Below, piece after piece: positions 219 through 39,010 of a stretch of DNA of 64,000 bases; position 1 is the first letter of the stretch, and every line of letters starts with the position of its first letter. This stretch comes from an uncultured Gammaproteobacteria bacterium. Lineage in GTDB: Bacteria > Patescibacteriota > Patescibacteriia > S139-126. The position numbers were made by a program, and so were the translations under genes. A model generated the notes under the pieces. The model saw only the letters and a program-made list of their open reading frames with translations, had not been told where the DNA came from and made no database searches. The DNA is taken from positions 519,646-583,645 of the forward strand of contig CAZUKA010000001.1 of assembly GCA_964620905.1 (NCBI GenBank). Reading direction: 5' to 3'.

Positions 219-1145
219 TTATTCAACTTGAGCACAATCTGCTTGAAAATCTTCCGGAAAATTGTATTCAATCAATAAATCACAAGGGATAATACCATTG
301 CCATCAAAAACCAACTGCCACTCATCATCAACTAGGGCTGCAAAAAATATTCCGCCCTCGCCAGGTTCATCTGCTATACCAAACTTTACACTTCCTCGCA
401 TATGAGTGGGTGTGCTGGTGGTAATATTGATACTTATTTCATCCAAATTCCGCTCATACTTCTGAGCAAATTTTTCCTTGATTGCTTGATTGATGGCTAA
501 ATTGTCAGTTAAGTTGGGATTAAAATAACCACAAGAAAGCTCAATATTCAAATCATCACCCACTGGTTGTAATGAACCGTCAGCTTTTTCTTCAAGTTCT
601 GCGTGACGAAAATCATAAAGACATACCATATAATTGAAATAATATCCTCGCTGCCCGCCTTCGAAACCATCAGCTAAATTGTAGGAGTCACCCGGTGATA
701 AATTATTCAAAAAATTTTCTACTGCCAAAACACCATTCATGGTCAAATTTTCTGCCTGGTAAGATAATCCATCGATACTGACATCCACTTGGCTCTGTTC
801 ATCACCAACTATCCAGTTGAAAGATTTATTTACAGGCCCACTAAACACAATGCCCATATTTTGATTTATCACTCGCACTAAATTGGACACCACATCAGGA
901 CAAAATTCTTCAAAAAGACGTTGACATTTTTGACTTGATTCACACCAGCTATAACCAGCCGAGTTTAAACAGCCATACTCATCACGGTCAGCTCCTAGTA
1001 GCGGCACTGTTTGATCAGAAGAAGTTTCTGCCGGAGGGGGTAATTGTTTTTGATCCCAAATACGCAAAGCCCAAATGCCACCACCAACTATCAACATAGC
1101 CAGCAATATTATCATAATAATAGGAAATATCTTATAACGATTCAT
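219..1145 (-). CDS. Membrane-anchored secreted protein, hypothetical.
   Basis: 308 aa. N-terminal transmembrane anchor followed by a hydrophilic domain with several Cys. No recognised catalytic motif. Confidence 0.55.
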   Translation of the reverse strand: MNRYKIFPIIMIILLAMLIVGGGIWALRIWDQKQLPPPAETSSDQTVPLLGADRDEYGCLNSAGYSWCESSQKCQRLFEEFCPDVVSNLVRVINQNMGIVFSGPVNKSFNWIVGDEQSQVDVSIDGLSYQAENLTMNGVLAVENFLNNLSPGDSYNLADGFEGGQRGYYFNYMVCLYDFRHAELEEKADGSLQPVGDDLNIELSCGYFNPNLTDNLAINQAIKEKFAQKYERNLDEISINITTSTPTHMRGSVKFGIADEPGEGGIFFAALVDDEWQLVFDGNGIIPCDLLIEYNFPEDFQADCAQVE

Positions 1146-1190
1146 AATATATAAATGAATGATTAGTATCAGTATTTATTATAACTCAAT

Positions 1191-2384
1191 TCAACCAAAC
1201 ATCAACGCTGCGGGTTTAAATATTAAAAGTAATCCAATTATCAACATCAGTATTCCTCCAATTAAATGCGAATAGCGGGAATATTTACTAGTTAAACCAG
1301 TAATTTGTAAAGTGGTCATCGCAATAAAAAAAACCAACAAATCATCTAGCATAAATACAAAAATATAAAGCAAAATATATAAATAATACTGCCACTGGTC
1401 CAAATTGTTTAGAGCAAGTACTTGCGTATAAACAGCAGGTAGTCCGGCTGAACAAATAAGCTCCACTAAATTGACAGCCATTGCCAGTAGGATTATCCCG
1501 CCCAAGGCCAAATAAAAACTGTTTTGCTGGGTTATTTCTTTTAATCGGCCAAAAATTTGTTGTCTCTTTGTAGAACCGGTTACCTTACATGCACCGGTTG
1601 GATTGGTAAAATATTCTTTCAAGTTATAACCACCACCAAACAAAGCCAAAAGTCCTATCAATACCCTCACCCAAACGATAAATCCAAGAAAAATTATTAA
1701 ATTGAGCCAAGCGGCCATAAACAAAAAATAAACCAGGGCTGAAGCTACAATAAATGCACTACCCAAAATCCACATCCGTTTTTTGTCTTTCATCCCCAAA
1801 AGTAAGCTGATCAAAAACAACAGCACCCACATGGCGCAAGGATTAAAACCATCCAGTGCTCCTAAAATAATAGTGAGTATTGGCAGGGAAAAATTTTTTA
1901 TTTCAATTTCACCTAGCCAGGGTACTTTGATTTTATCAGAATCAACTGATACAGCGACTGAATCTGAAATATCATTTGGCTCTGCTTGGGCAATGCCTAA
2001 AATTTCACCAGTTTTATCCGAACAACCTAGTTGTAAACACGCATCAACCCGGCGCTCAATCTCATCAGGCGTGATAGTTTCACTAAAACCCACCAACGGT
2101 TGATCGCCAATAATAGTAATCGGCACACCTTGAATAGAAAAACCTAAAGACTGACCGATAGCTTGCAGTGATTTTTGATTGTCTTGATTGTAATAGACTT
2201 CATAATCATAAAGTGTCAAGGCCGAATTTTCTTTAACAAATTTCTCCAAAAATGATTTCTCTTTGGCACAATGTGGGCACCCCTGCCCCCAGAAAAAATA
2301 TATATTGGTTGTATTGGCCAAAATTCTAGCTGGAGTCAAAGACAAGAATAAAAATACAAATAAACCAAAAACAAATTTTTTCAT
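1191..2384 (-). CDS. Thiol:disulfide interchange protein. Thioredoxin-like domain (CPHC) fused to a CcdA/DsbD-type membrane domain.
   Basis: Signal peptide. WGQGCPHCAKEK thioredoxin active-site motif. C-terminal multi-transmembrane region with a GFNPCAMW motif typical of the CcdA/DsbD electron-transfer domain. Confidence 0.7.
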   Translation of the reverse strand: MKKFVFGLFVFLFLSLTPARILANTTNIYFFWGQGCPHCAKEKSFLEKFVKENSALTLYDYEVYYNQDNQKSLQAIGQSLGFSIQGVPITIIGDQPLVGFSETITPDEIERRVDACLQLGCSDKTGEILGIAQAEPNDISDSVAVSVDSDKIKVPWLGEIEIKNFSLPILTIILGALDGFNPCAMWVLLFLISLLLGMKDKKRMWILGSAFIVASALVYFLFMAAWLNLIIFLGFIVWVRVLIGLLALFGGGYNLKEYFTNPTGACKVTGSTKRQQIFGRLKEITQQNSFYLALGGIILLAMAVNLVELICSAGLPAVYTQVLALNNLDQWQYYLYILLYIFVFMLDDLLVFFIAMTTLQITGLTSKYSRYSHLIGGILMLIIGLLLIFKPAALMFG

Positions 2385-2419
2385 AAAGATTAATTTAGTA
2401 ATATTTAATTATACAACAA

Positions 2420-2455
2420 AATAAAAGAGTCGTCTTTAACAGACGACTCGAATTT
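2420..2455 (-). terminator. Rho-independent terminator.
   Basis: 9-bp stem gagtcgtct/agacgactc with a 5-nt loop. On the minus strand it is followed by a T-run. Confidence 0.5.
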
Positions 2456-2491
2456 TTACCTCCTTTCTTTTTGAAAGTTGGAAAATATTTT

Positions 2492-3298
2492 TTATTGGAA
2501 ATAGATCCAAAAGTAAATTTTGACTATTTTTTTTGAAGTATCATAACCTGCTCCAATCAAACCCTTAAAGTAAGATGCCATGAAATCTTTAGTTAAGCCA
2601 ACTTCAACTCTTTCAGGATTCTTTTCTCGATAATCATAGATAGAGGCAAAATAAAGATCTACTGGTCCATTGATAGACAAAAAATTTGTCAGAAGCGAAT
2701 CTGATTCAAAAAAAGTCATAAATTTAAAAAAAGAATGACCAACAATTTCCCCGGCTACTCCATGTTGGAACTTATTGTAAAAAGTCCCCAATCTTATTTC
2801 AAAATTTTCATTTTTGAAGCCCATTCCCAAATTGGCTTCGCCCACTTGTTTTTGAGAATAAGTATAACCAATACCAACTGATAAGTTATTTCCATTTAAG
2901 GAAACATCAATACCGGGGACTACACCTGGGATTTTGCCATATGGAAATGGCTCAAAATGCGAGGCAGGACTTATAGGGGTGGGCCTGATCAGAGTAATTT
3001 GTCTCGGAATGAGACCAATTTTTGTTTTTAATCCGCAACTATTATTTTCAAACCAAAAGCTACCAAAGTACTGTTCCGGGTTTGAATACCGCACACGATA
3101 AATAAAAAAATTTTCTGAGCTGATAGAATATTTGGTTTCTAAACCAAACATGTAATCAAAATCATTGATTACATTTATTTTCTCGTCTATATTACCAGTA
3201 TAAAGGATACCGGCATATTTTTTAGTAATTTCCAAATCCTGACCAAAAATTACTACTGGAGAGTAGACAACCAACAACAAGAATAACAGGGATTTCAT
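2492..3298 (-). CDS. Secreted protein with a signal peptide, hypothetical.
   Basis: 268 aa. N-terminal signal peptide MKSLLFLLLVVYSPVVIFGQ. The remainder is beta-rich with Gly and Tyr. Confidence 0.55.
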   Translation of the reverse strand: MKSLLFLLLVVYSPVVIFGQDLEITKKYAGILYTGNIDEKINVINDFDYMFGLETKYSISSENFFIYRVRYSNPEQYFGSFWFENNSCGLKTKIGLIPRQITLIRPTPISPASHFEPFPYGKIPGVVPGIDVSLNGNNLSVGIGYTYSQKQVGEANLGMGFKNENFEIRLGTFYNKFQHGVAGEIVGHSFFKFMTFFESDSLLTNFLSINGPVDLYFASIYDYREKNPERVEVGLTKDFMASYFKGLIGAGYDTSKKIVKIYFWIYFQ

Positions 3299-3410: not shown

Positions 3411-3437
3411 AAAATCGTCACTTAAGACGATTTTAGA
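3411..3437 (-). terminator. Rho-independent terminator.
   Basis: Stem aatcgtc/gacgatt followed by a T-run on the minus strand. It lies downstream of the 3455-4933 gene. Confidence 0.5.
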
Positions 3438-3454: not shown

Positions 3455-4933
3455 CTATTTTTTCAAAATCCTTACTATTCCTTTATTAGCATCAACCTCT
3501 ACTCTATCACCATCTTTCAATACTTGAGTGGCAATTTTTGTGCCGATAATGCAGGGTTTATTCATTTCCCTAGATACGATTGAGGCGTGAGAAGTTATAC
3601 CTCCCTCGTTGGTTACAAAAGCTAATGCTACTTCCATCAAAGGCACAAAATCAACAGAAGTCATAGGCGCCACCAAAATATCTCCTTGTTTGAATTTACT
3701 AAAATCTTTTTTATTTATTATTACTTTTACACTACCTAAAACTTTACCTGGGTTGGCAATCGTACCTTGTAGAAACCTAGTTGATTTAACTTTATTTTTT
3801 TTAATATATAATTTATTAATTTCTCTAATAAACGGTTTTAATTCTGACTCATTTAATAAATGGTATCTTGTGTTATTATTAGCAGCAATAACACCTCGCC
3901 AGATATTGGTTGTATATTCCAATACACTATCATCATTATCATAATAAAGATGACCAATCTCGTCCGGAGTCAGTTTCAACAACAATTTCCAATCTTCTAA
4001 ACCATAATCTTTGGCTATATGATGATATAAATAACGCAAAGACAAACTAGCCCGACTAAAAATATTTTTTCGGTATTCATTTAAATAAGTGCCTATTTGT
4101 AAGGCTTTGGCTTGTATAGATATTTCTTGATTATCTATATCTCTCAATAACCTTTTTCTTTTAATTAATTTCTGTCTATGAGACTTGATTAAATCATCAA
4201 TCTGATGAGCACAATCATGATGTAAAACCTGCTTTAATTGATTTATAATATCTTTTATAAACCAAGGATCTTCATTAAAATTAACTGGAATAACTTGGTA
4301 CATATTTAAATGCTTCCTTATCATTGAATTAAATTTTTTATTATTTTCTAATTGATTTATTTTTAGTCTATTCTGCTGTATATATTTACCTAGTCTTAGA
4401 ATAGATAATTGAGAATTAAATAAAGGTGTGTGTTGGTTTGGGTAAGTTATATTTCCTATCAATAAATCTATTTCACTGATCGATTTTTGTTGGTATAAAT
4501 TCTTTAAATTTTTATAAATTTTTTCATGTATTCGTCTACCTATGGCTGTTGTCAAATATAAACCTGGGGTTAAATGCTTATAAGCTTCCACAAAACTAAA
4601 ATAAGAATCCTTACTAAAATCTTTTTGTAAAACTTTACTAGCTGCCAATAGATTAGCACCATGCTTATAATAAATCTTTATTAATCTATTGATCCATTTT
4701 TGTGAAGAACAATTTTTTTCTATCTGTTTATTGTAATTTTGAGTATCTAAAACATGATCAAATATGCTACCTTCTTTACCTTTTTTATTTATAAAAACTG
4801 TCCTTCTTGCTAATATGTTAAATTTTTTTAAATAAACTTCATCAATATCAGCAACAACATCCAATACAGAATGAAAAAATGAAACATTCCTAGTAACTGA
4901 TATATTCCAATTAGATTTTTTAAATTTGATCAT
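3455..4933 (-). CDS. PEP-utilising-enzyme mobile-domain protein (PpsA-like paralogue). K/N-rich N-terminal region.
   Basis: The C-terminal ~80 aa carry the phosphohistidine swivel-domain signature GGITSHASIVSREMNKPCIIG. The last ~40 aa are nearly identical to the neighbouring paralogue. Confidence 0.65.
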   Translation of the reverse strand: MIKFKKSNWNISVTRNVSFFHSVLDVVADIDEVYLKKFNILARRTVFINKKGKEGSIFDHVLDTQNYNKQIEKNCSSQKWINRLIKIYYKHGANLLAASKVLQKDFSKDSYFSFVEAYKHLTPGLYLTTAIGRRIHEKIYKNLKNLYQQKSISEIDLLIGNITYPNQHTPLFNSQLSILRLGKYIQQNRLKINQLENNKKFNSMIRKHLNMYQVIPVNFNEDPWFIKDIINQLKQVLHHDCAHQIDDLIKSHRQKLIKRKRLLRDIDNQEISIQAKALQIGTYLNEYRKNIFSRASLSLRYLYHHIAKDYGLEDWKLLLKLTPDEIGHLYYDNDDSVLEYTTNIWRGVIAANNNTRYHLLNESELKPFIREINKLYIKKNKVKSTRFLQGTIANPGKVLGSVKVIINKKDFSKFKQGDILVAPMTSVDFVPLMEVALAFVTNEGGITSHASIVSREMNKPCIIGTKIATQVLKDGDRVEVDANKGIVRILKK

Positions 4934-4941
4934 TTATTTTA

Positions 4942-6414
4942 TTATTTCTTTAAAATCCTCACTACTCCTTTATTAGCATCGACTTCCACCAAATCGCCAT
5001 CCTTTAAAACCTGGGTGGCGATTTTTGTCCCAATGATACAGGGTTTTTTCATTTCCCTCGAAACAATGGCTGCGTGACATAATATACCTCCTTCATCGGT
5101 TATAAAACTTGATGCTTTTTCCATAGCTGGAACAAAGTCAGGTGTAGTCATACTGGTTACTAAAATATTTCCTTTTTTTACCTTTTTTAAATCTTTTGTA
5201 GTATTTACAATCCGAGCTATTCCTTTGACTTTTCCTAGATAAGCAGTTGTCCCTATAATAATCTCAGTTTTGTTGATTATTTCTCTTTCTTTAAATTTAT
5301 TTACTGCTAACTGTCCACTATAAATTTTTAGTTTCCCTTTTTTTAATATTAAAACGCTATTTAAAATTCTTTTTTTAATAATATTTTTTGCCTGAAGTAT
5401 TGAAATTTTATTATTTAATAATAAATTAATTTCTATTGGTGTCAGGTATAAAAACTTTTTTGCTTTAATATTAAATTTTTTTTCCAGATCAATAAACAAT
5501 GGCCATACTTTATACAAAGAAATAAACAATACATCTAATCGATAAGTCCTTAAATAAACAAATTCTCTGGTAATTTCAATCAATTTTATTTCAGCACTGT
5601 TTAATTGCAATTTTCTAATTGCTTTTTTATATTTTAATTCTGTTTGCTTTTCAGAGATGATGATGTCATTCTTTTCTTGTTGACCATCTCTTTTTATTTG
5701 TTTAGATAATCTGACAATCAAATCTTTTTGCGACCAAAAATTACCTTTAAAGTTATGGTCGCCAAGCCATGCCCATCTGTTTAAATGGCTGTTTATTAAA
5801 TTTGATAAGTCAGATTTATTTTTACCAAGAATATTGTATAATTTGAATTCTTTTTTAAATTTTTTATTATTTTTAATTTTTTGTGCCAAATTTAAAAATT
5901 CAATTTTTTCTTGTTGAACTGCACTACGTTTTTTTGCAGAGGTAAATAAAAGATAAACTTCTTGATACTTATTATGATTCTTTTTAAAATCAATTTTGGA
6001 TGAAACTATCTCATTGATTTTATTAGTTAAATATTTTTCTATGACTAAAGGCAAGTGTAGGTATGCCATGATTTTGTATAATCCCGACAAATAAATATCT
6101 AACTGTTGACCAATATCTTGGTTAATTAATTTTGTTTTGGAAAAATTGTCACTAAGTAAAATAAAATTATAAATATCCTGATAGCACTTATCAATAATTT
6201 TTTTAAAATAATTTGGATCTTTTTCTAACTTTTTGTTCAACCTTTTTCCCAATAATTCATAGGCATTGGTTATAAAATTGTCTCCATTTACAATTTTATA
6301 ATCAACAATTGTATAATCAATACCTATCTTATTATAAATTCTAGATCCACCCAACAATTTTGTGGCATCCATAAAAATTGAATTATTTCTTGATAATGTT
6401 TTTTGCCATTTCAT
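4942..6414 (-). CDS. PEP-utilising-enzyme mobile-domain protein, tandem paralogue of 3455-4933.
   Basis: C-terminal GGILCHAAIVSREMKKPCIIGTKIATQVLKDGDLVEVDANKGVVRILKK. The N-terminal ~400 aa are lysine-rich and divergent. Confidence 0.65.
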   Translation of the reverse strand: MKWQKTLSRNNSIFMDATKLLGGSRIYNKIGIDYTIVDYKIVNGDNFITNAYELLGKRLNKKLEKDPNYFKKIIDKCYQDIYNFILLSDNFSKTKLINQDIGQQLDIYLSGLYKIMAYLHLPLVIEKYLTNKINEIVSSKIDFKKNHNKYQEVYLLFTSAKKRSAVQQEKIEFLNLAQKIKNNKKFKKEFKLYNILGKNKSDLSNLINSHLNRWAWLGDHNFKGNFWSQKDLIVRLSKQIKRDGQQEKNDIIISEKQTELKYKKAIRKLQLNSAEIKLIEITREFVYLRTYRLDVLFISLYKVWPLFIDLEKKFNIKAKKFLYLTPIEINLLLNNKISILQAKNIIKKRILNSVLILKKGKLKIYSGQLAVNKFKEREIINKTEIIIGTTAYLGKVKGIARIVNTTKDLKKVKKGNILVTSMTTPDFVPAMEKASSFITDEGGILCHAAIVSREMKKPCIIGTKIATQVLKDGDLVEVDANKGVVRILKK

Positions 6415-6450
6415 ATAAAAAATATACTATTTTATTAATAATCTGTCGAA

Positions 6451-6487
6451 TAAAAAAGCCGAACTTATTTGTTCGGCTTAAAAAAAT
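6451..6487. terminator. Bidirectional rho-independent terminator.
   Basis: 9-bp stem aagccgaac/gttcggctt flanked by A- and T-runs. Confidence 0.55.
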
Positions 6488-6500: not shown

Positions 6501-7004
6501 CTAAACAGTACCCTTTTCAGCAACTCCAGTTGCTACGACTTCTTCAATACTGATAATTTCATTTTCTTCAATAATTACTTTGTATACGGCAGCTGATTTG
6601 GCATCAGCAAAGCCTAACATGATCATTGATGGTCTGCCAGCGCAGACAACGAAATTATCAGGTAGCGAAGCTACCAATGTTTTTGCAGCAGAAGAAGTAT
6701 CATCTAAGGAAGTATATTTATCTGGATCAACGGCAATTCCGCTGGTTAAAAGAATAACCTTTTTTTCATCAATTACTTCCAAAGAATTACCATCCCCAAT
6801 AGTACTAGAATAACGAGTTGGCTCAAGTTCAAGTGCCAATGCAACATCAATATGACGTTTCCCGGTACCAGATAAAACTATGGAGGGATTTTTTGGAACT
6901 AAATTTTTTAAAGCATTTACTTCTATAAAACCTTCTGGTGTCATTCCTGGATCAGGAATATTAGAAAGTTTCCTTCCATGAGTAACAATATAACCGGTTT
7001 TCAC
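6501..7004 (-). CDS. Hypothetical protein, possibly a histidine-phosphatase-like fold.
   Basis: 167 aa. N-terminal IVTHGRK resembles an RHG-type motif, but the match is weak. Confidence 0.35.
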   Translation of the reverse strand: MKTGYIVTHGRKLSNIPDPGMTPEGFIEVNALKNLVPKNPSIVLSGTGKRHIDVALALELEPTRYSSTIGDGNSLEVIDEKKVILLTSGIAVDPDKYTSLDDTSSAAKTLVASLPDNFVVCAGRPSMIMLGFADAKSAAVYKVIIEENEIISIEEVVATGVAEKGTV

Positions 7005-7162: not shown

Positions 7163-7621
7163 TTACTTCTTTACTTTCTTTTTAGCCACTTTTTTAGATT
7201 TGGTCACTGGTAATTCCTTTACTATTTTTTTAACTTTGGGAATAGCAACTATTGGTTGCGGTTGATTGCTTAACTCAACTACTTTAATCAGTCGTTCCAT
7301 TTTCTCATTTAACAACACCAACTGCTTTTTTACTTCATCATTTGACCCACTACTGACAGCTGGTTTATTGGAAAAGCTTTTTTGAGCAAACCTATATCCC
7401 CCGCGATTGTCGCCACCACTTTTTTTACTGGCAAAACAATTATCACAATAAACTGGTTTATCACCACTGGGGCGAAAAGGTACTTGGCATGTTTTACCAC
7501 ATTGATCGCAAACGGCCTGATGCATAGAAACCGGACCACGGTCTCTTCCTCGTCTATCATCACGACCTCTAAAACCTCCTCCGCCAAAACGTTTCCCGCC
7601 ACCTCTTTTAAAATCTCCCAT
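7163..7621 (-). CDS. RGG-rich CxxC-x17-CxxC zinc-ribbon protein with a lysine-rich tail. Putative nucleic-acid binding.
   Basis: N-terminal GGGKRFGGGGFRGRDDRRGRDRG. CDQCGK-x17-CDNC. C-terminal KKVAKKKVKK. Confidence 0.6.
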   Translation of the reverse strand: MGDFKRGGGKRFGGGGFRGRDDRRGRDRGPVSMHQAVCDQCGKTCQVPFRPSGDKPVYCDNCFASKKSGGDNRGGYRFAQKSFSNKPAVSSGSNDEVKKQLVLLNEKMERLIKVVELSNQPQPIVAIPKVKKIVKELPVTKSKKVAKKKVKK

Positions 7622-7885: not shown

Positions 7886-7961
7886 TCCGCGGTAGCTCAG
7901 TCGGTAGAGCAACTGGCTGTTAACCAGTGGGTCGTCGGTTCGAGTCCGACCCGCGGAGCCA
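7886..7961 (+). tRNA. tRNA-Asn (GTT), CCA encoded.
   Basis: 7-bp acceptor tccgcgg/ccgcgga. D-loop agctcagtcggtagagc. Anticodon stem actgg/ccagt with loop ctGTTaa. T-arm ggttcgagtcc. Confidence 0.9.
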
Positions 7962-9560
7962 TATGGGATGAACGGACGCAAAACGTCCGTTTTTCTCTTT
8001 ATTCACGGGCTGAACCAGATGTTCGAAAATCTTATTTGGGTCTATTTTCTCTCCTATCAGTTCTCCCACGTGGTCAAAGATGATCTTGAACGCTTTGTGA
8101 TACGAAACCTGGGCGATTTTGCCGTTTAACGTGGCGTTCGAAAATACGAGCGACAGTAAAAGTCTTTTATCGTCCACCATCTCCTCCGTGTCACGGTTGA
8201 TGTAAATTCTCCATGCCTTTTTGGCCACCTGCAAAACCGTGACGCCCATTTCGTAATATTTCAGGTTGGCGTCCTTGTGCTTATTCAGCGTATCGAGTAT
8301 CTGTTCCTGCTCGACTTTGTATTGCTCGAATTTCTTTTTATAAAAGTCCTCGCTGATTTTGTCGTCGATCTTGTCGTCATAGAGCTTATCCAGCCTTTGC
8401 GTGGCTACTTCATAGCGGCGGTTAAGCTCGCCGGTGGCTTTATTGCGGAATTCTATCTCCTCGCTATGGCTTTCTTTCAAAGCTTCTTGCACCCAGTTGA
8501 GCATATTCTCTACGGCTTGCTCGTTTTTCGGGTTGAGCGAGTTGATTTTCTCAAGCATCTGTACGTCCACCGCTTCCTGCCGCACAAATTCGCGTTTGGT
8601 GCAGTTTTTATAATGATTGCAATGGCCGTACCAGTGACCTCGCTGTATCTCCCAAGTGATCCGGCCTTTGCATTCATCGCACCGGAAGACGTTTTTAAAG
8701 AGCGGATTGTGCTTGAAGTATCTTGGCGTGCCGTTTGTATGCATGATTTCCTGGCACCGGTCGAATAATTCTTTCTTGATCAAGGGTTCGTGTCCGGCTT
8801 TGGTTACTTTGCCATCCCAACGGTTCATGCCGTAATAAAACGGATCGCCCAGAAGCTGGTGGACTCTTGAGTGGCTCACTTTGTTGCCTCCCCGGGACCG
8901 CAATCCTTCCTCGTAGATGACATCGGCCAGCTTCTTGGTCGAGTAGCGGTTCGTGGCATACAGATCAAACATCCGTTTGACGAGCGGCGCTTTATCCGGA
9001 TCAAGCACGTGGATTTTGTGTCCCTTCTCGCCGATGGTTTTATATCCGAGCGGCGGCTTGGCCGGAAGCCATCCTTGAGAGAGTTTTTCCTTTTGACCTT
9101 TCTTTACGTTTTCGGAAAGAAGCCGGATGTAATACTCGGCCGTAGCCACTTTGACGCGCCACATAAACCATTCGTGCGATTTGGAGTCTTTGTGAAGCGT
9201 GCAGTTTTCTTTTACCAGATGGATTTTGTGATCGTCGCTCTCCAATATCCAATTATCGATCACCGGCACATCGGCAAAGTTTCTGGTCAGCCGATCGGTG
9301 GTTTCCACGAACACGGTGCTGATCTTAGCTTTGCTTACGAACGCCATCATTTCGTGGAAGATTTTGCGCTGAACCTTACCGGCGGCCGACTCTTGGATAG
9401 CAAAAACCTTCATGAGCTCGTAGCCGTTGCGGTCGGCATAATCACGAAGGAGTTTTTCCTGGGCTGGAAGCGAGTATCCGGTATCCTCCTGATCCTTGGA
9501 TGAGACACGGGCATATCCTACGGCTTTCGGCGGTTGATTTTCATTCATTGTCATAGTCAT
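7920..9560 (-). CDS. Large serine recombinase (serine integrase).
   Basis: N-terminal resolvase-type catalytic motif VGYARVSSKDQ. Central recombinase domain. C-terminal Cys-rich zinc ribbon (CDECKG...HCNHYKNC). The annotated C-terminus reads through the tRNA-Asn 3' half, so the true stop may differ. Confidence 0.85.
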   Translation of the reverse strand: MTMTMNENQPPKAVGYARVSSKDQEDTGYSLPAQEKLLRDYADRNGYELMKVFAIQESAAGKVQRKIFHEMMAFVSKAKISTVFVETTDRLTRNFADVPVIDNWILESDDHKIHLVKENCTLHKDSKSHEWFMWRVKVATAEYYIRLLSENVKKGQKEKLSQGWLPAKPPLGYKTIGEKGHKIHVLDPDKAPLVKRMFDLYATNRYSTKKLADVIYEEGLRSRGGNKVSHSRVHQLLGDPFYYGMNRWDGKVTKAGHEPLIKKELFDRCQEIMHTNGTPRYFKHNPLFKNVFRCDECKGRITWEIQRGHWYGHCNHYKNCTKREFVRQEAVDVQMLEKINSLNPKNEQAVENMLNWVQEALKESHSEEIEFRNKATGELNRRYEVATQRLDKLYDDKIDDKISEDFYKKKFEQYKVEQEQILDTLNKHKDANLKYYEMGVTVLQVAKKAWRIYINRDTEEMVDDKRLLLSLVFSNATLNGKIAQVSYHKAFKIIFDHVGELIGEKIDPNKIFEHLVQPVNKEKNGRFASVHPIWLRGSDSNRRPTG

Positions 9561-9699
9561 TTTTTGTTAATAATTATTTGTTCGAATACGACCTTTGGTA
9601 CCCAACACCCTATACTAATTTTTATGACAAGCTAAGCGGCAGTTGCCCACATTCTCTAAAAACACCGCAGTTAACTGTAAAATCCTGTAATTATTCTGT

Positions 9700-9862
9700 T
9701 TTTTGCTCATTTTGTTGGGTTTTACCGGGTTTTGTCGGGTTTATTTTTTCCATTTTTGGTGTTAGTTAGTGTCAGTTAGTGTTAGTTACTTTTGTTCAAA
9801 ACGTTGCCGTTTATTGCCGAATCTTGCCGAAAACCGGTGGTATCTGGTGGGTTCTGGTGAGA
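9700..9862. repeat. Cluster of short tandem direct repeats (iteron-like).
   Basis: The cluster contains gggttttaccgggttttgtcgggttt. It contains gttagttagtgtcagttagtgttagttac. It contains ttgccg three times. It contains ggtggtatctggtgggttctggtg. It lies between the integrase start and the 3' end of gene 9866-10438. Confidence 0.5.
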
Positions 9863-9865
9863 TGT

Positions 9866-10438
9866 TTATTTGCCTCGCATCGTCATTTTATCCAGTAAAT
9901 CGGCCTTCATCCGGCGGATTTCCTGTAATTTCTGCGAGCCACCGTTATTTTCTTTATAATTTTCTTTAATTTCTTTTAAACCCTTAACTTCTATATCACC
10001 GCCGTCCGAGGCAGTCTGCTTCCCAAGCCGATCGGTTTTAGATGCAGATTGGCTTCCGTCCTGCATGAGATGTAGGACGGAAAGCAGAGTGATACTCCGA
10101 GGTTTGAACTTGGCATCCTTGCCCCGGACTTTCGTGATCGCGATAAAGCACCACTCCTCGAGCTTAGTGAGGCACTTCTTAATTGTCCGCCAATCTTTGA
10201 GGCCGGAGTACGTGAGAAGCGTTTTGTTGGATGCTTCTATGGTTTGGCTCGCCTTGTTGGAAGCAATCTCGGTTAAGGCGCAATAAACATTCCGCAGGTT
10301 GCGGTAAGCATCATCGCTGATATGTTTATCGAGCCACTGCTTCCGCATATACCGCAAAGCCGGCTTATCCTGATAAGCAAACGGCGCTTCGCGGTAGTCG
10401 CGGACTTTATGATTTTTATTTTGCTGGTTCATCGTCAT
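9866..10438 (-). CDS. Hypothetical protein on the island, possibly replication or regulatory.
   Basis: 190 aa, basic, GC-rich. No conserved motif recognised. The function is suggested only by the adjacent iteron-like repeats. Confidence 0.45.
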   Translation of the reverse strand: MTMNQQNKNHKVRDYREAPFAYQDKPALRYMRKQWLDKHISDDAYRNLRNVYCALTEIASNKASQTIEASNKTLLTYSGLKDWRTIKKCLTKLEEWCFIAITKVRGKDAKFKPRSITLLSVLHLMQDGSQSASKTDRLGKQTASDGGDIEVKGLKEIKENYKENNGGSQKLQEIRRMKADLLDKMTMRGK

Positions 10439-10706
10439 ATGGCACTAAAAGCTTCCGGCCGCTCGTGATGTCCTCGACGTAGAAGCGCATCAAGGCATCG
10501 TAAAAGCCAAGCAGGTTGAAAGCGATATCGTGCAAATCGCGGTCATCGACCTCCTGGCCGAAGTCTTTTTTGAGGATAGCGCGGAGTTTTTCCAGCGTTT
10601 CCGGTTGTAAGTTCACAGGTCTTAGTCCTCGGCATAAATCCGTACTTTGACCTGCTTCAACTGGTTGAAAAACGCTTGAGGCTCGACTTGAAGTTCGCGG
10701 CTCCAA
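10416..10706 (-). CDS. Hypothetical protein. Overlaps the next ORF in another frame.
   Basis: 96 aa ORF. It overlaps 10622-10864 by about 85 nt, so it may be a frameshifted single gene or have a later start. Confidence 0.3.
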   Translation of the reverse strand: MEPRTSSRASSVFQPVEAGQSTDLCRGLRPVNLQPETLEKLRAILKKDFGQEVDDRDLHDIAFNLLGFYDALMRFYVEDITSGRKLLVPYDDEPAK

Positions 10707-10864
10707 TATCGCTTCACCAGAGAATCCAGCTCATGGCTCTTGCCGAAGCAGAAGAGCACCTTGTGCGGATTTCCCCGATCCACGACCTCAAGAGAATCAG
10801 GAATAAATAATAAAAGCACCGCGACCAATGCCAGATCGGCGGTTTTGTAATAATTGTTTTCCAT
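10622..10864 (-). CDS. Hypothetical protein.
   Basis: 80 aa ORF in the GC-rich island. Confidence 0.3.
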   Translation of the reverse strand: MENNYYKTADLALVAVLLLFIPDSLEVVDRGNPHKVLFCFGKSHELDSLVKRYWSRELQVEPQAFFNQLKQVKVRIYAED

Positions 10865-11016
10865 ATGCTGGCATTTTCATCGTCATTAACTTCCTCTCAC
10901 ACACTTTTATTTTTGCAAACGGGATCGGGCTTCTTGAATACTGCGAGCGTATAGTTGCAAAACAAAAAAGCGGCTGTTTCTGCCGCTGATCTTGAGACTT
11001 ATTAACTACACTAGAA

Positions 11017-11682
11017 CTACACCTGTTTTATTTTGTACTCCGGATTGATTTTGTAACCGCTCACGGACCGGCCGGTTATGAAATTATCAACGCCAAGATT
11101 GTACTTTGCTTTGCGATTGATCATGAGCTTGGCATTGTGCAATGCTTTCCGGTTTTTGCTTCCGGTAAGCTCTACCAGCTCGTCTGTCGGCACGAATGTT
11201 TTACGCTCAAGTAAAATCCGGACGATCTTTTGTCTTTGCTTTTCTTTGCCCATTTCATAGCAATGTTTGGCTTTCGGCTCTCGGTATAAGTCGCCGTCGC
11301 TGGAGAAATAGATGACTTTCTTTTTATCTGTCGGTTTCGCTTTCTTGGCGGCTAGTCCGTAGGCCGCGCCCTCGGCCGCCATGCGAGCAATGCTCTTTTC
11401 CAAGTCTGCAACTTTGTTTATGGCCGTCTGATACGCTCGGGTCATAGCTTCCACGCTTTGCGTATTACGGTTCAATGCTTTGGTCAGGTCTACAATAGCC
11501 GGATCACCAGTCTTTACGATGTCCTGCGGATTCTCTATATTCGCAAAATCTTTGAGAGCAGACCGTAGCTCGCTAACGACAGCAGAAATGGTAAATGGAT
11601 AGGTGCTCGTCTTGGCGACAGTCCGTTTGATATTGAATTTGTACTTGGTAGCCAGCGCGGCCTTTTTCATTTTCATAGTCAT
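11017..11682 (-). CDS. Hypothetical protein on the island.
   Basis: 221 aa. Ala/Lys-rich central region. No recognised motif. Confidence 0.5.
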   Translation of the reverse strand: MTMKMKKAALATKYKFNIKRTVAKTSTYPFTISAVVSELRSALKDFANIENPQDIVKTGDPAIVDLTKALNRNTQSVEAMTRAYQTAINKVADLEKSIARMAAEGAAYGLAAKKAKPTDKKKVIYFSSDGDLYREPKAKHCYEMGKEKQRQKIVRILLERKTFVPTDELVELTGSKNRKALHNAKLMINRKAKYNLGVDNFITGRSVSGYKINPEYKIKQV

Positions 11683-11713
11683 CTTTCTATTATTATGACA
11701 AAACGCGGCGATT

Positions 11714-11742
11714 TTGACAATGAAAAATGAAAGCGGTAAAAT
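11714..11742 (+). promoter_or_regulatory. Candidate sigma-70 promoter (TTGACA-17-TAAAAT) for the xis-mod-res operon.
   Basis: ttgacaatgaaaaatgaaagcggtaaaat lies in the divergent intergenic region, about 25 nt upstream of the 11767 start. Confidence 0.45.
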
Positions 11743-11766
11743 GGTATCAACGGCTAAAATAATTTT

Positions 11767-11958
11767 ATGAGTGACATCGAAAAACTTTTCACCATTGAGG
11801 AAGTCGCCGAGATTTTAAGAGTCCATACCCGGACCGTTACCCGGTATATTGAGGCTGGCCGACTTAAGGCGTCAAAGCTTGGGGTCTGGCGGATCAAGCA
11901 GTCTGATTTAGACGCATTTTTGGAAGAAACGAGTAACGTTAAGAAAAAGAAGAAATAA
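11767..11958 (+). CDS. Excisionase-family (MerR-like) HTH DNA-binding protein.
   Basis: LFTIEEVAEILRVHTRTVTRYIEAGRLKASKLGVWRIKQSDLDAFLEE matches the excisionase-family HTH pattern. It lies 2 nt upstream of mod. Confidence 0.7.
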   Translation: MSDIEKLFTIEEVAEILRVHTRTVTRYIEAGRLKASKLGVWRIKQSDLDAFLEETSNVKKKKK

Positions 11959-11960
11959 AT

Positions 11961-13493
11961 ATGGCATCACTAAATTGGATTGGAAAAGAGGCAGTCTCAA
12001 ACCACGATAAGGAGGTGCCTTTTAAGTTGCTCAAAAAAGTTAAGACAGCTTCAGTTGGCGACAACTCTCAAAATCTAATAATCCACGGAGATAATCTTGA
12101 GGCTCTTAAGGCACTCATGCCTCATTATGTTGGGAAAATAAAATGTATCTATATCGATCCTCCGTACAACACCGGAAATGAAGGTTGGGTATATAACGAT
12201 AAAGTAAACTCGCCGAAAATTAAGCAGTGGCTTGGTAAAGTTGTCGGCCGAGAATCCGAAGACCTAACTCGCCATGATAAATGGTTATGCATGATGTATC
12301 CGCGTCTCAAGCTCATGCGAGACTTACTTGCAGATAACGGATTTATTTTTGTCTCCGTAGATGACAATGAACACTGCAATCTTCGTGGTGCAATGGACGA
12401 GATCTTTCTTGAGAAAAATCATATTACGACTATTGCGTGGCAAAGAAAAAAAGAGAGTTCAAATGATAGCAGAAACATCTCTGTGAAAGCAGAATATATT
12501 GTGGTATACGCACGGTCAGAAATTGCCCAGTTAAACTTACTTTCTTTAAGTGAATCCTATATTGAGACCGCTTATAAATTACCCACCAAAGAATTCCCTC
12601 ATGGGAAGTGGAGGCCTGTTCCTATAGCCACGACAAAAGGACATAAAAGTGGTGGATATACTTATGAGATTGTCACGCCTTCCGGTAAAAAGCATAAAAG
12701 AGAATGGGCTTATCCCGAGGAAAGTTATAAGCGTCTCTTAGGTGAAGGAAAAATATATTTCGGAAAAAGCGGTGATGGGGTTCCTCAGCGTGTTATTTAC
12801 GCGCACGAAAGCACGGGCATACCAGCAAGCAATATTTGGACGGATGTAGCGACAAACAAAGAAGGAAAAAATGAGATAGTAAATTTATTTGGAGATGGTA
12901 CTTTCGAAACGCCAAAGCCCGTAGGGTTAATTAGAAGAATTTTGGAACTCGCAACGGAAAAAGATTCGTTAATCTTAGATTCCTTTGCTGGCTCTGGCAC
13001 AACCGGTCATGCGGTGTTGGATTTGAATAAGGAAGATAACGGAACTCGTAAATTTATTATGGTTGAAATGGAAGACAAAGTTGCAAAGGACATTACCGCT
13101 GAACGGGTTAAGAGAGCGATTAAGAAATACGATTATAAGGATGGCTTCGAGTATTGCGAATTAGATAAGCCGCTCTTTAATGAGCACGGCCAGATTGAGG
13201 AAACATGTGATTTCCGGCAATTCGCAACGTATATTTACTTTACTGAAACGCAAACCAACATTGATCCAAAACTGATTAATGAGAATTATATCGGAGAACT
13301 CGGTACGACTGAGTACTACCTGCTTTATCAAGGAAAGAATAAGAACGATCTCAATAAATCTTTCCTGAAGAAAATCAGAAAAACCGATAATAAGAAGGTC
13401 ATTTATGCGGACCGGTGCTTGATCGACGACGAAACGCTTGCTAAGCATAACGTCGTGTTCAAGCAGATACCTTATGAAGTAAAAGTCTATTAA
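11961..13493 (+). CDS. mod: Type III restriction-modification methyltransferase (Mod), beta-class N6A/N4C MTase.
   Basis: Motif IV IYIDPPYNTGNEGW precedes motif I LDSFAGSGTTGHAV, which is the beta-class order. Res follows 4 nt downstream. Confidence 0.85.
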   Translation: MASLNWIGKEAVSNHDKEVPFKLLKKVKTASVGDNSQNLIIHGDNLEALKALMPHYVGKIKCIYIDPPYNTGNEGWVYNDKVNSPKIKQWLGKVVGRESEDLTRHDKWLCMMYPRLKLMRDLLADNGFIFVSVDDNEHCNLRGAMDEIFLEKNHITTIAWQRKKESSNDSRNISVKAEYIVVYARSEIAQLNLLSLSESYIETAYKLPTKEFPHGKWRPVPIATTKGHKSGGYTYEIVTPSGKKHKREWAYPEESYKRLLGEGKIYFGKSGDGVPQRVIYAHESTGIPASNIWTDVATNKEGKNEIVNLFGDGTFETPKPVGLIRRILELATEKDSLILDSFAGSGTTGHAVLDLNKEDNGTRKFIMVEMEDKVAKDITAERVKRAIKKYDYKDGFEYCELDKPLFNEHGQIEETCDFRQFATYIYFTETQTNIDPKLINENYIGELGTTEYYLLYQGKNKNDLNKSFLKKIRKTDNKKVIYADRCLIDDETLAKHNVVFKQIPYEVKVY

Positions 13494-13497
13494 TACT

Positions 13498-15753
13498 ATG
13501 GAACTAAAACGCTACCAAAAAAATACATTAGAGACGCTCGAGCAATTCTTGAAGGAATTGCATAAAGCTGGCTTGAAGTACGCCTTCATGGGCATTACGG
13601 AAAAGCCGTACAGAGCTGAAGCTTTTGGCGAAGTTCCATTTGTCTGCATTAAAATTCCTACCGGGGGTGGCAAGACATTGGTTGGCTGTCATGCCGTAGA
13701 AAAAATAATGAGCGGTGCCCTACAGAACAAATTGGATCGTGGCATAGTTCTTTGGTTTACACCGTCCGAAGCCATCAAGACACAAACACTTAAGAAATTT
13801 AAAGATCGCAAAGATTGGCATCGCAGGGCGTTGGACGAAGCCTTTGATAATAACGTTAAGGTGTTTTCAAACGAGGAGGCTCTTACCATTCGCAAAGAAG
13901 ACGTAAACGGAAACCTTTGTATTATTGTTGCCAGCCTTGAGGCATTCAGAAAAGAAAAAACACTCCAAAATAAATATAAAGTCTATCAGGAGAATGGTGC
14001 GCTCTTAGATCACTTTGAGCATATCGAGGAATCAGATTATCTCGAACGAGATAGTGAAGGAACCGTTGTTAATTCTCTTGCTAATGTCGTCCGGTTAAGC
14101 AACCCACTTGTGGTTATCGATGAGGGTCATAAAACGGCTACTAAACTTTCGATTGATTTCCTCAAAGACCTTAATCCCAGCTTTATTATTGAATATACCG
14201 CTACTCCACGGGATAACAGCAACATTCTCGTTGAGGTTCATGCTTCCGAGCTGAAAGAAGAACAAATGGTGAAGATCCCCATCGTTCTCGAGAGCGCCGC
14301 GCAGTGGCAGAACGCCATTATCCGCGGTGTTGAAAAGCGCATTGAGCTAGAGAAGGATGCAAAGAAAATTAAAGGCGAGTATATACGGCCTATTGCATTG
14401 CTTCAGGCACAGCCAAAAGATGAAAATATCACTGTTGAGAAAATAAAAGAATTTTTACTCGAACGGAAGATACCTGCTGAACAGATCGCAATAAAAATCT
14501 CAGGAAAAAACGAACTCGAGAGAGTAGACCTCTTCGACAGAAAATGTCCGATACGTTACATCATTACAGTAAATGCCCTAGCCGAAGGATGGGATTGTTC
14601 CTTCGCTTATATTCTTGTTTCGGTTGCGAACCTTGGCTCAAAAATTGCTGTTGAGCAGATCATCGGGCGCATCATTCGTTTACCGTACGCCAAGAAAAAA
14701 GCCAATGAAGACTTTAATAGAAGTTATGTCTTTGCTTCTGCTAGGAACTTTAATGAGGCAGCAAGCCAAATTATTTCAGGCCTTGAGACTAACGGCTACA
14801 GTAAGGCAGATATCATAGGTGCGGATAAAAAGGACGCTTCGTATGAGTTGGAAACCAAAAAGGCGGTTTCTGACACGCTCAAAATGCCGATGGTGGCTTT
14901 GGATGGTGAACTGTTGTCATTTGAAGACTTGATTGGTAGTGATTTTGAGTTGTCAAAGCAGGATTACAAATTTGAGTTCCAGATCCATTACGATAACGAC
15001 GGCCGAGCGATCATTGATATCAAAGAGGATGAATGGATGCGCGGCAAGCAGATGTTTTTGAAGCTAAGTTATTCAGACAAAAACTTCACTAAGAATGAGT
15101 TGGTGCAATGGCTTGATAAAAAGCTACGTTTCCCGCTTTTAGAAAAATCAGACAAGGTTGGTTTTCTCGATAAAGCTATTGAGCACCAGCTTAAAACTCA
15201 TACACTTTCCGAACTTTCAGTAAATCGCTACGTCTTAGCTGATCGCTTGAGCGAGGTTATCAACGGCATCCTTGAGGAATATGCCAAGAAAAAATTTGAT
15301 GCTCTGTTGCAGAAAAAGAAAATCGTCACTGAACAGTTCGAGGCATTTCCGGCTGTTATTACTCTCAAGCGACCAGAGCCGAAGGAGTTTAACAAATGCT
15401 ATTACGAGAAAATCGATAAATTGAATGGTGAAGAGCGTGAGTTCGTTGATCGTCTCGATCTCGACACCTTACCCAATGTTAAATATTGGGTTCGTAGCCG
15501 CGAGAAAACCGATCCGTTTTATATTCAGGGTTGGAAGCGAGGAAAGTTTTATCCGGACTTCATTGCGGTCACTAAGAAGGGCGCAATCGTAGCTCTTGAA
15601 TGGAAGGGTGCGGACCGGATAAGCAACGAAGATACGGCATACAAAGTTGAGATCGGTGGAATGTGGTCGAAGCTTGGCAAAGGAAAACTATACTTTTTCT
15701 TGGTGCATACGGGGAATGTTGAAGAAGTGCTGAAGGAAGTTAAAGAATTGTAA
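13498..15753 (+). CDS. res: Type III restriction endonuclease Res subunit (SF2 helicase-like).
   Basis: Walker A KIPTGGGKT. Motif II VVIDEGHK. Helicase C-terminal motifs. 751 aa, immediately downstream of mod. Confidence 0.85.
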   Translation: MELKRYQKNTLETLEQFLKELHKAGLKYAFMGITEKPYRAEAFGEVPFVCIKIPTGGGKTLVGCHAVEKIMSGALQNKLDRGIVLWFTPSEAIKTQTLKKFKDRKDWHRRALDEAFDNNVKVFSNEEALTIRKEDVNGNLCIIVASLEAFRKEKTLQNKYKVYQENGALLDHFEHIEESDYLERDSEGTVVNSLANVVRLSNPLVVIDEGHKTATKLSIDFLKDLNPSFIIEYTATPRDNSNILVEVHASELKEEQMVKIPIVLESAAQWQNAIIRGVEKRIELEKDAKKIKGEYIRPIALLQAQPKDENITVEKIKEFLLERKIPAEQIAIKISGKNELERVDLFDRKCPIRYIITVNALAEGWDCSFAYILVSVANLGSKIAVEQIIGRIIRLPYAKKKANEDFNRSYVFASARNFNEAASQIISGLETNGYSKADIIGADKKDASYELETKKAVSDTLKMPMVALDGELLSFEDLIGSDFELSKQDYKFEFQIHYDNDGRAIIDIKEDEWMRGKQMFLKLSYSDKNFTKNELVQWLDKKLRFPLLEKSDKVGFLDKAIEHQLKTHTLSELSVNRYVLADRLSEVINGILEEYAKKKFDALLQKKKIVTEQFEAFPAVITLKRPEPKEFNKCYYEKIDKLNGEEREFVDRLDLDTLPNVKYWVRSREKTDPFYIQGWKRGKFYPDFIAVTKKGAIVALEWKGADRISNEDTAYKVEIGGMWSKLGKGKLYFFLVHTGNVEEVLKEVKEL

Positions 15754-15765
15754 ATCCTGTAATAA

Positions 15766-19108: not shown

Positions 19109-19112
19109 AAGT

Positions 19113-19445: not shown

Positions 19446-19447
19446 AT

Positions 19448-19924: not shown

Positions 19925-19928
19925 ACAT

Positions 19929-20723: not shown

Positions 20724-20744
20724 AGTCCGACCCGCGGAGCCATA
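20724..20744 (+). repeat. attR-side direct repeat, a copy of the tRNA-Asn 3' end.
   Basis: The 21 nt agtccgacccgcggagccata are identical to 7943-7963. A hairpin cccgccaacggcggg lies just upstream. Confidence 0.7.
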
Positions 20745-36697: not shown

Positions 36698-36775
36698 TTT
36701 TATTAATAATAACTCATTTTATTATACCATAAACAAACTACCCCACCTAAAAGGTGGGGTAGTTGAATAAATAAA

Positions 36776-37342: not shown

Positions 37343-39010
<1,668 letters not shown>

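Follow-up and report, generated by a model that had tools for sequence, protein, structure and literature searches.

The 64,000-nucleotide stretch of DNA analysed here (the window; part of contig CAZUKA010000001.1 from an assembly labelled as an uncultured Gammaproteobacteria bacterium, GCA_964620905.1) carries on its minus strand two adjacent genes, B and A in the order of reading, whose products both end in a phosphohistidine swivel domain of the phosphoenolpyruvate (PEP) synthase type. Our analysis indicates that the two proteins are probably the acceptor-binding and phosphohistidine-carrier subunits of a split dikinase resembling rifampin phosphotransferase (RPH), and that they act on different acceptors. 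This reading builds on the domain architecture of the proteins, their homology to the RPH fold, the conservation of the swivel histidine and of the motifs, the linkage of such two-domain units (hereafter modules) with ATP-grasp domains in relatives, and the recurrence of phosphatases among the neighbouring genes. The working principle is known from RPH and the two-component dikinases, and by analogy A and B may be regarded as a variant of these small-molecule dikinases. As an instance the pair is modest; the interest lies in the large unnamed family behind it.

Domain composition and fold of the paired proteins

Both open reading frames (ORFs) are intact, and an 8-nt gap separates the stop codon of B from the start of A. 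The Pfam scan placed the PEP-utilisers mobile domain, PF00391, at residues 414–485 of A (E 1.4e-24) and 413–483 of B (E 1.2e-24), with the histidine motifs present in each, in agreement with a first-pass annotation that had described two adjacent proteins of about 490 residues ending in a swivel. PF00391 is the sole Pfam domain in A and B; the scan detected no ATP-grasp domain (PPDK_N, PF01326) in either protein even at E ≤ 1, and no PEP-utilizers_C domain (PF02896). The earlier description of the proteins as consisting of a swivel domain only holds as far as Pfam goes; no Pfam model exists for the region in front of the swivel, which is nonetheless a defined and conserved domain. A and B match each other in BLASTP with an E value of 7e-53 and 39% identity across the last 300 residues, a similarity that, judged from the sequences, is real homology and not chance. 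It is unevenly spread, as had been noted before: the N-terminal ~380 residues are 17% identical, whereas the last 45 residues are 89% identical in protein and 79% in nucleotide sequence. The lysine content is 11% in A and 15% in B. The former represents an “A-type” subfamily, with the motifs ITYPxxHTPLF, IPVNFNEDPW and GTYLNEYRKN and an N-domain that is 30–45% identical to those of the relatives P0006–P0017; the latter represents a “B-type” subfamily with the motif YLRTYR.

The nature of the N-domain emerged from structure prediction and profile comparison. The AlphaFold2 (AF2) model of B, built on a family alignment of 16 sequences (pLDDT 85.5, pTM 0.84), comprises a mostly helical region with small sheets over residues 1–~370, followed by the swivel. 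Its six best Foldseek matches in the PDB are all structures of RPH from Listeria (RPH-Lm; 5fbu, 5fbt, 5hv1, 5fbs, 5hv2 and 5hv3), with E values of 5e-16 to 1e-13, TMq of up to 0.64 and ~550 aligned columns that cover the whole query; 5fbu, 5fbt and 5hv1 lead the list (E 5e-16 to 3e-15, TMq 0.60–0.64, with 0.63 at 5e-16). The matches that come after RPH-Lm (pyruvate kinase, pyruvate phosphate dikinase, Enzyme I) cover the swivel only. Independently, the joint hidden Markov model (HMM) of the family aligns to residues 449–867 of RPH-Lm, which comprise its rifampin (RIF)-binding domain and swivel, with an E value of 5.5e-29. Single-protein searches of PDB sequences with A and B gave swivel matches only, the RIF-binding domain being reached by the family profile, and upstream of the swivel neither Pfam (E ≤ 1) nor NCBIfam gave any match except that B 274–489 aligned in part with the RPH-like model PRK06241. 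Taken together, the structural matches and the HMM alignment identify the modelled N-domain as a homologue of the second-substrate (RIF-binding) domain of RPH, and not as an ATP-grasp domain. The first-pass annotation had pointed to RPH-like phosphotransfer enzymes, made of a swivel only or of an ATP-grasp and a swivel. An N-terminal ATP-grasp must be given up, as PPDK_N is absent and the N-domain has no nucleotide-binding fold, while the RPH likeness gained ground: the RPH-Lm profile match extends over the N-domain, the best fold match has an E value of 5e-16 and the catalytic histidine is conserved.

The swivel histidine (His449 in A, His447 in B) aligns with the catalytic histidines of PEP synthase PpsA and RPH and is present in 110 of 110 aligned single-module relatives. 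In the N-domain, Arg292 (B numbering) is conserved in 97% and Glu328 in 99% of 112 single-module relatives, and positions 289–290 read R-T in B-like and N-E in A-like relatives. The second phosphotransfer of RPH cannot proceed without R666 and E667, which hold the phosphate and His825 (PMC4844700). A remote HMM alignment sets residues 289–293 of B on R666-E667-Y-P-K670 of RPH-Lm, the 97% conserved arginine lying three residues downstream of the position aligned with R666. The equivalence of the family motif to the R666/E667 region is suggestive.

The swivels of A and B differ at the position of the regulatory threonine of PpsA (GGxT[SC]H), which is kept as Thr447 in A (3593–3595) and replaced by Leu445 in B (5080–5082); across 110 relatives this position is Thr in 56% and Leu in 35%. 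Given this difference, the modules may be unequal in any PSRP-like regulation.

The nearly identical C-termini had been taken as a sign of recent duplication or gene conversion. Of the 39 degenerate residues that are identical in the final 45 codons, 18 share their codon, where codon usage by itself predicts 18.7; hence the synonymous sites of the tail are saturated. The longest exact nucleotide run common to A and B is an off-register A/T 19-mer, and neither the nucleotide nor the codon alignment of A with B, by which a conversion tract was to be mapped, contains such a tract. The tail, KPCIIGTKIATxVLKDGDLVEVDAxKGIVKI, recurs in homologues from unrelated genomes, where it is 80–89% identical to A or B over 45 columns. 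Among 220 swivel domains the closest to that of A are A-type swivels of other genomes (76–82% identity). With the whole swivel compared, B stands in 41st place among 214 for A, A in 13th among 212 for B, and the two are not mutual closest relatives. Concerted evolution of A and B was ruled out by this nearest-neighbour analysis. Read in this way, the sequences identify the tail as kept by selection family-wide, and A and B as ancient paralogues of different subfamilies.

The same data bear on the view that A and B are self-contained kinases with ATP-grasp and swivel, born of a recent tandem duplication and homogenised at their 3′ ends by gene conversion. The adjacency of the genes, their equal size and the 89% identity of their last 45 residues accord with this view. 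Yet no ATP-grasp is seen by Pfam, profile or fold, codons are shared at the random level, the N-domains belong to different subfamilies and each swivel is closer to swivels of other genomes, which leaves this view hardly any probability. A strict B-then-A pair was not found among the related loci. Only two resemble one, L012, with a B-like gene directly before an A-type gene, and L014, in which a B-like gene, a phosphatase-fold gene of the kind found beside B and an A-type gene lie within 5 kb. Most other modules at the related loci are further subtypes.

Family architectures, phosphate supply and probable phosphatase partners

A word-indexed search returned fewer than 20 relatives. An exhaustive profile search with the N-domain only yielded 3,153 representatives of clusters defined at 50% identity at E ≤ 1e-3, and 1,932 at E ≤ 1e-10. 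Among the best 150 of the 3,153 representatives the majority are 430–540 residues long and have the ATP-grasp-less form of A and B. Others are fused to PPDK_N, either in front of the module, which is the order of RPH (P0024, P0056, P0059, P0067), or behind it (P0061, P0098), and some carry tandem modules in one protein (P0020, P0021, P0029).

The subtype of gene A was followed through 185,579 species genomes, each GTDB species being represented once, by a motif scan that found 35 loci, labelled as Patescibacteria/Candidate Phyla Radiation (CPR) in 25 cases, archaea in 8, “Gammaproteobacteria” in 1 and “bacterium” in 1. The eight archaeal loci come from Woese-, Nano- and Micrarchaeota, unclassified archaea and two “Methanosarcinales” metagenome-assembled genomes (MAGs). 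The subtype scanned is almost confined to CPR bacteria and DPANN archaea, both of them radiations of very small prokaryotes that depend on hosts. Members in bins labelled otherwise (L010 from a Gammaproteobacteria MAG, L018 and L020 from the Methanosarcinales MAGs, P0003 from Bacteroidota) may be mis-binned epibiont contigs or real transfers to hosts.

The domain layout of the 35 loci, taken from a local HMM survey, links the modules to ATP-grasp domains. PPDK_N was present within 10 kb in 23 of them, as a stand-alone protein of 313–333 residues in or beside the module array in 5 (L009, L010, L012, L024, L042), fused in 16 and fragmentary in 2. Tandem arrays reach 9–11 module genes (L006 1–12027, L010 1–15621, L012 1264–20366), with N-domains so divergent that many score below the family N-domain HMM. 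Elsewhere the modules are joined into giant single ORFs of 1,188–2,249 residues (L011, L017, L018, L019, L020, L022, L025, L030), among them polyproteins of one ATP-grasp and 2–4 modules: L011 with 1575 residues, L018 with 1599, L020 with 1695, L025 with 1782 and L022 (4709–11458) with 2249. The polyprotein of L017 carries its ATP-grasp at the C-terminus, unlike those that begin with PPDK_N. Neither the arrays and polyproteins nor the link to phosphatases turned up in the literature that we searched, where the family is mentioned at the level of annotation only: a survey of the CPR resistome counts “rph” hits in CPR genomes (PMC8651080), and a study of DPANN archaea reports a “phenylphosphate synthase” without the downstream carboxylase (PMC8091004).

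Some loci have further neighbours of possible metabolic meaning. A low-molecular-weight phosphatase gene (LMWPc) lies in the middle of the L006 array, and L005/L009 carry a HAD-like gene of 208 residues. In the Woesearchaeota locus L001/L031 (7398–12645) the neighbours are a YfbR-like HD phosphohydrolase, Peptidase_M29/NicX and an MBL-fold hydrolase, and in the archaeal L003 (3082–5730) a purine-nucleoside phosphorylase and a phosphoribosyltransferase lie near the family member. The neighbours in L001/L031 and L003, which were not recurrent in the neighbour clustering, may hint at nucleoside or metabolite salvage.

In the window, the earlier annotation of a full-length ppsA proved right: PpsA has 796 residues with PPDK_N (E 4e-124), PF00391 and PEP-utilizers_C, and it is the only protein there with an ATP-grasp or a PEP-binding domain. 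Its swivel is 50–52% identical to those of A and B. The ATP-grasp partner of A and B may be encoded elsewhere in the genome, as for the 12 related loci with none nearby, or the ATP-grasp or PEP domain of PpsA may act on them in trans. The gene is part of a GroES-GroEL-PpsA block (34307–38992, with GroEL at 37343–38992) that also occurs in the L005/L009 Patescibacteria MAG (L005 1333–6090), where it directly abuts a module array. This common block gives the best hint at the affinity of the window, and together with the taxonomy of homologues it marks the source as a probable CPR/Patescibacteria bacterium.

These observations raise the alternative that the swivel histidines are charged in trans from PEP, which would be turned into pyruvate, by the PEP-binding domain of PpsA, in the manner of Enzyme I of the phosphotransferase system, or that A and B serve as phosphorelay components or regulators of PpsA. 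The swivels are indeed nearest to PpsA (114–120 bits with the NCBIfam PpsA model and 54–62 with that of RPH; PDB PpsA matches at E 1e-23), PpsA alone in the window has a domain able to charge a swivel, and in L005/L009 its gene lies 2 kb from the array. The relatives, however, are fused or clustered with PPDK_N alone, never with PEP-utilizers_C, 12 of the 35 loci have neither domain nearby, so that proximity to PpsA is not general, and a pure relay would offer no explanation for an N-domain that is large, conserved and equipped with an RPH-like acceptor pocket. We consider this alternative unlikely.

Under the split-dikinase reading, we infer from the architecture catalysis as such, which ATP-grasp serves as donor in this genome, what the modules act on and what the phosphatase does, and the cycle would run as follows. 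An ATP-grasp (PPDK_N) supplied in trans would bind ATP; the C-terminal swivel would dock on it, and His447 of B or His449 of A would take the β-phosphate, the γ-phosphate being hydrolysed and AMP and Pi released. The swivel would then return to the helical N-domain of its own polypeptide, where a pocket with the [R/N]-[T/E]-Y-R motif and the invariant Glu would position the acceptor hydroxyl to which the phosphate is passed on. Finally, the 167-residue histidine-phosphatase-fold protein encoded next to B could dephosphorylate either the product or the phosphohistidine. Different acceptors are to be expected for A and B, given that their N-domains share just 17% identity.

A wider version of this scheme, to which we give tentative credence at most, is a hitherto undescribed phosphotransfer system of CPR and DPANN organisms with one charger and many modules. 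One PpsA-like ATP-grasp, on its own or heading a polyprotein, would load up to 11 divergent modules per locus, each would phosphorylate a different small molecule, and phosphatase-fold proteins would complete the cycle. If this were true, such a system could, in host-dependent cells with little metabolism of their own, trap scavenged host metabolites by phosphorylation or neutralise toxins of hosts or competitors. The trio of the phosphatase-fold gene, B and A would then represent a cassette of minimal size, gained by horizontal transfer, that relies on an ATP-grasp encoded elsewhere, possibly that of PpsA. One ATP-grasp with many acceptor domains would be a natural toolbox of small-molecule kinases. 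Genomes of ~1 Mb that devote 10–20 kb to arrays, or encode polyproteins of 2,000 residues, must gain something important from them, and knowing the substrates of the modules might show by which means episymbionts capture host molecules or detoxify them.

Could A and B instead be non-functional remnants of fused RPH-like genes that have lost their ATP-grasp? There is no ATP-grasp nearby, the composition is aberrant (overall GC 26–28% against 36.5%; GC at third codon positions, GC3, ~0.21 against 0.30), and fragmented copies exist in some genomes (L026, L041 and a gene split into 205 + 257 residues in L005). Against this stand the full length of both ORFs, the intact histidine and motifs, the prevalence of the ~490-residue ATP-grasp-less form among the best-scoring relatives and the strong purifying selection on the swivel. 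The intact ORFs, the saturated synonymous sites, the conserved swivel and a 99% identical copy in another sample point to selection on the pair, and decay is a very improbable explanation. The fragmented family genes at L026 9110–15334, L041 9293–10927 and L005 13282–14776 comprise ATP-grasp pieces of 97–137 residues, short swivel pieces and the module split in L005, and indicate pseudogenisation or assembly frameshifts in some Peribacteria/Patescibacteria genomes.

The putative phosphatase is encoded directly upstream of B. The AF2 model of the 167-residue protein (pLDDT 95.1) has as its top Foldseek match the PGAM-like protein TTHB049 (2p6m, E 8e-8, TM 0.61), followed by Rv3214, Rv2419c and fructose-2,6-bisphosphatase; the PDB matches at E ≤ 1e-3 number 237, the 50 listed being without exception phosphatases of the histidine phosphatase superfamily, PGAM-like or other. 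Like members of that superfamily, and close in size to the 170-residue TTHB049, the protein has an invariant xHG histidine near the N-terminus and conserved Arg residues. Of its 41 homologues, 36 served to establish T8, H9, G10, R50 and R124 as invariant. The family differs in that an invariant T-H-G replaces the usual RHG and that, as the alignment reads, CAGRP apparently replaces the second His motif. The protein itself has no match in Pfam, PF00300 (His_Phos_1) included, or among PDB sequences; one homologue has a faint His_Phos_1 match (E 0.13), and hhalign sets the THG of the family on RHG with a probability of 3% only. Homologues lie directly beside A-type genes in L014, L024 and L039. 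The most recurrent neighbour family in the neighbour clustering, proteins of 260–329 residues found at six loci, carries the RHG motif itself, and 3 of the 5 members tested exceed the Pfam cut-off for His_Phos_1. Going by its predicted fold, the 167-residue protein is probably a phosphatase partner of the modules.

Several points weigh against this interpretation of the pair and its neighbour. The likeness to RPH is remote (14–17% identity, rmsd ~9 Å), and the fold evidence comes from the model of B, which is itself based on a shallow alignment. The motif equivalence derives from an HMM alignment that is possibly one residue off, and neither subfamily keeps both R666 and E667 together. The 64-kb window has no stand-alone ATP-grasp, a tblastn search with that of L005 matching PpsA only (37% identity), and PPDK_N was not found within 10 kb in 12 of the 35 related loci. 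Sequence methods fail to call the 167-residue protein a phosphatase, its support being the fold only, and it lacks the first Arg of RHG and is possibly not catalytically standard.

Relation to known dikinases and phosphotransferases

The closest parallel in design is offered by the two-component dikinases HpeHI of Rhodococcus, CreHI of Corynebacterium and phenylphosphate synthase PpsAB of Thauera (PMC12167813). HpeH alone moves phosphate between substrates and its H581Q mutant is inactive; the catalytic histidines are His581 of HpeH and His560 of the phenylphosphate synthase PpsA (PMC12167813). The split is the same, with an RPH-like substrate-binding domain and a C-terminal swivel histidine in one subunit and the ATP-grasp in a separate protein. 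The histidine stands in the GGxT[SC]HAAI context, which reads GGITSHASI in A and GGILCHAAI in B. An adjacent ATP-grasp subunit of the HpeHI type, missing from the window of A and B, is present at the five related loci with stand-alone genes. A and B are nevertheless shorter than the HpeH/PpsA-type subunits, as the positions of the histidines show, and align with the PRK08296-type NCBIfam models by the swivel only, at 94–97 bits (best 96.5) against cut-offs of 578 and above. Whereas each known system joins a single module to a single ATP-grasp and serves aromatic catabolism in free-living bacteria, the clade of A and B includes polyproteins, arrays of as many as 11 modules and partners of the histidine-phosphatase kind, occurs in CPR and DPANN organisms and has no aromatic-catabolism context.

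RPH-Lm (5FBS/5FBT/5FBU/5HV1) is the sole solved structure that matches the whole protein. Both have a C-terminal swivel, and the basic/acidic motif of A and B falls, in the remote alignment, at the position of R666/E667/K670. RPH has an N-terminal ATP-grasp, which A and B lack. With the RPH models (NF041857 and NF000283) the proteins score 54–62 bits against a cut-off of 999 and 39–42 bits against one of 1700, and the swivels, as well as the ATP-grasp domains of fused relatives, resemble PpsA more closely than RPH. It is conceivable that A and B are antibiotic-resistance enzymes in the strict sense, phosphorylating rifamycins or inactivating other antibiotics of hosts or competitors. Their only whole-protein structural homologue is a resistance enzyme, rph-like hits in CPR genomes were listed in an in-silico survey (PMC8651080), and many divergent paralogues per genome would suit a detoxification arsenal. 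But the scores are far below the cut-offs of the RPH equivalog models (39–62 bits against 999–1700, and ~360 against 999 for the fused relatives), the N-domain is ~15% identical to RPH with nothing specific for rifamycin, and a histidine-phosphatase partner would reverse an inactivating phosphorylation. We therefore regard resistance in this strict sense as rather improbable.

With PEP synthase PpsA and pyruvate phosphate dikinase, A and B have in common the swivel with its GGxT[SC]HAAI motif, and their best sequence matches, at ~50% identity, are found here. They lack both the ATP-grasp and the PEP/pyruvate TIM-barrel, and their swivel is terminal whereas that of PpsA is central. The PEP synthase models TIGR01418 and NF005057 align with the swivel only (102–120 bits against cut-offs of 598 and 740). 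The fused relatives and stand-alone ATP-grasps reach no NCBIfam cut-off either; their ATP-grasp and swivel are nearest to PpsA (455 and 347 bits, cut-off 598). These PpsA-nearest scores, together with the RPH-like N-domain, identify the clade at the sequence level as one that joins PpsA-like end domains to an RPH-like acceptor domain.

The prodigiosin-type ligases PigC, RedH and HapC follow the RPH-like three-domain logic, with phosphorylation that activates the substrate, and their NCBIfam models match the swivel in part. They are single chains of ~880 residues with an ATP-grasp, and A and B reach 70–82 bits against cut-offs of 1300–1350. The glucan water dikinase (GWD) of plants and algae resembles A and B in that its substrate-binding region is N-terminal to a pivoting histidine domain. 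GWD is a single chain with the ATP-grasp after the swivel, the order also seen in P0061, P0098 and the L017 polyprotein, and its substrate-binding domain, CBM45, is unrelated to the N-domain of A and B. On profile scores, the clade is separate from RPH, PigC/RedH and the PRK08296 two-component families. It has no name, its ~380-residue acceptor domain has no Pfam model and no member has been characterised; its recognition corrects the labels “PEP-utilizing enzyme”, “phosphoenolpyruvate synthase”, “phenylphosphate synthase” and “rph” used in CPR and DPANN surveys.

Surroundings of the pair

The features of the pair and its neighbourhood are collected in Table 1.

Table 1. Positions in the window of the genes, domains, predicted key residues and signals discussed.
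Feature	Position	Strand	Description and evidence
Terminator-like hairpin	3411-3434	minus	21 nt past the stop of A; consensus scan
Gene A	3455-4933	minus	492 aa; second of the pair; ORF and PF00391
A, swivel	3458-3778		aa 386-492
A, His449	3587-3589	minus	predicted phosphocarrier; motif GGITSHASIVSREMNKPCIIG, also GGITSHASIVSRE; GGITSHASI context
A, N-domain	3785-4933		aa 1-383
A, Arg288	4070-4072	minus	YLNEYRK motif; equivalent of Arg292 of B
Gene B	4942-6414	minus	490 aa; first of the pair, upstream of A; ORF and PF00391
B, swivel	4945-5265		aa 384-490; phosphohistidine domain
B, His447	5074-5076	minus	predicted phosphocarrier; motif GGILCHAAIVSREMKKPCIIG, also GGILCHAAIVSRE; GGILCHAAI context
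B, N-domain	5275-6414		aa 1-~380; RPH RIF-binding-like
B, Arg292	5539-5541	minus	YLRTYR motif; candidate phosphate-binding residue of the acceptor site
Promoter-like site	6421-6449	minus	ahead of B; consensus scan and sequence
Terminator-like hairpin	6456-6479	minus	after the 167-aa gene; consensus scan and sequence
167-aa gene	6501-7004	minus	directly upstream of B; divergent histidine-phosphatase-superfamily fold; AF2 and Foldseek
PEP synthase PpsA gene	34307-36697	minus	796 aa; PPDK_N, PF00391 and PEP-utilizers_C; Pfam

The promoter-like site and the hairpins weakly suggest that B and A form a two-gene transcription unit of their own; the number of promoter-like sites in the region equals chance expectation. 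A, B and the gene of the 167-residue protein form a compositional islet, with GC3 values of 0.20–0.22 (0.202 for the last of these) against 0.298 ± 0.031 in the 31 other genes of the window. This common low GC3 is consistent with joint acquisition of the three genes.

The ORFs on either side (219–1145, 1191–2384, 2492–3298 and 7163–7621) have no homologues near family members at other loci. The three genes downstream of A (219–3298) have no Pfam match; they encode a 268-residue protein with a signal-peptide-like N-terminus, a 397-residue membrane protein that has a CPHC thioredoxin-like motif and is hydrophobic in its C-terminal half, and a 308-residue protein whose membrane anchor is N-terminal. 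The ORF 7163–7621, situated between the phosphatase-fold gene and a tRNA-Asn gene, encodes a 152-residue protein in which a Gly/Arg-rich N-terminus and a Lys-rich tail flank a treble-clef zinc finger (PF23477, E 5e-17); it has no conserved linkage to the family.

The tRNA-Asn gene (7886–7961) is the site of an integrated element of ~12.8 kb (7886–20744), whose near end lies ~1.5 kb from the swivel-gene pair. An exact 21-nt direct repeat, AGTCCGACCCGCGGAGCCATA, occurs at the 3′ end of the tRNA gene (7943–7963) and at 20724–20744. The element encodes a large serine recombinase (7920–9560), whose gene overlaps the end of the tRNA gene, the Mod (11961–13493) and Res (13498–15753) pair of a type III restriction-modification system and a DUF4365 protein, and several of its genes have GC3 values of 0.40–0.62, against ~0.30 in host genes. 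Two Logan contigs from independent assemblies of the same organism (L007 and L008) break at window position ~7993, ~30 nt past the tRNA-Asn attachment repeat, which suggests that the element is polymorphic or repeated in these samples.

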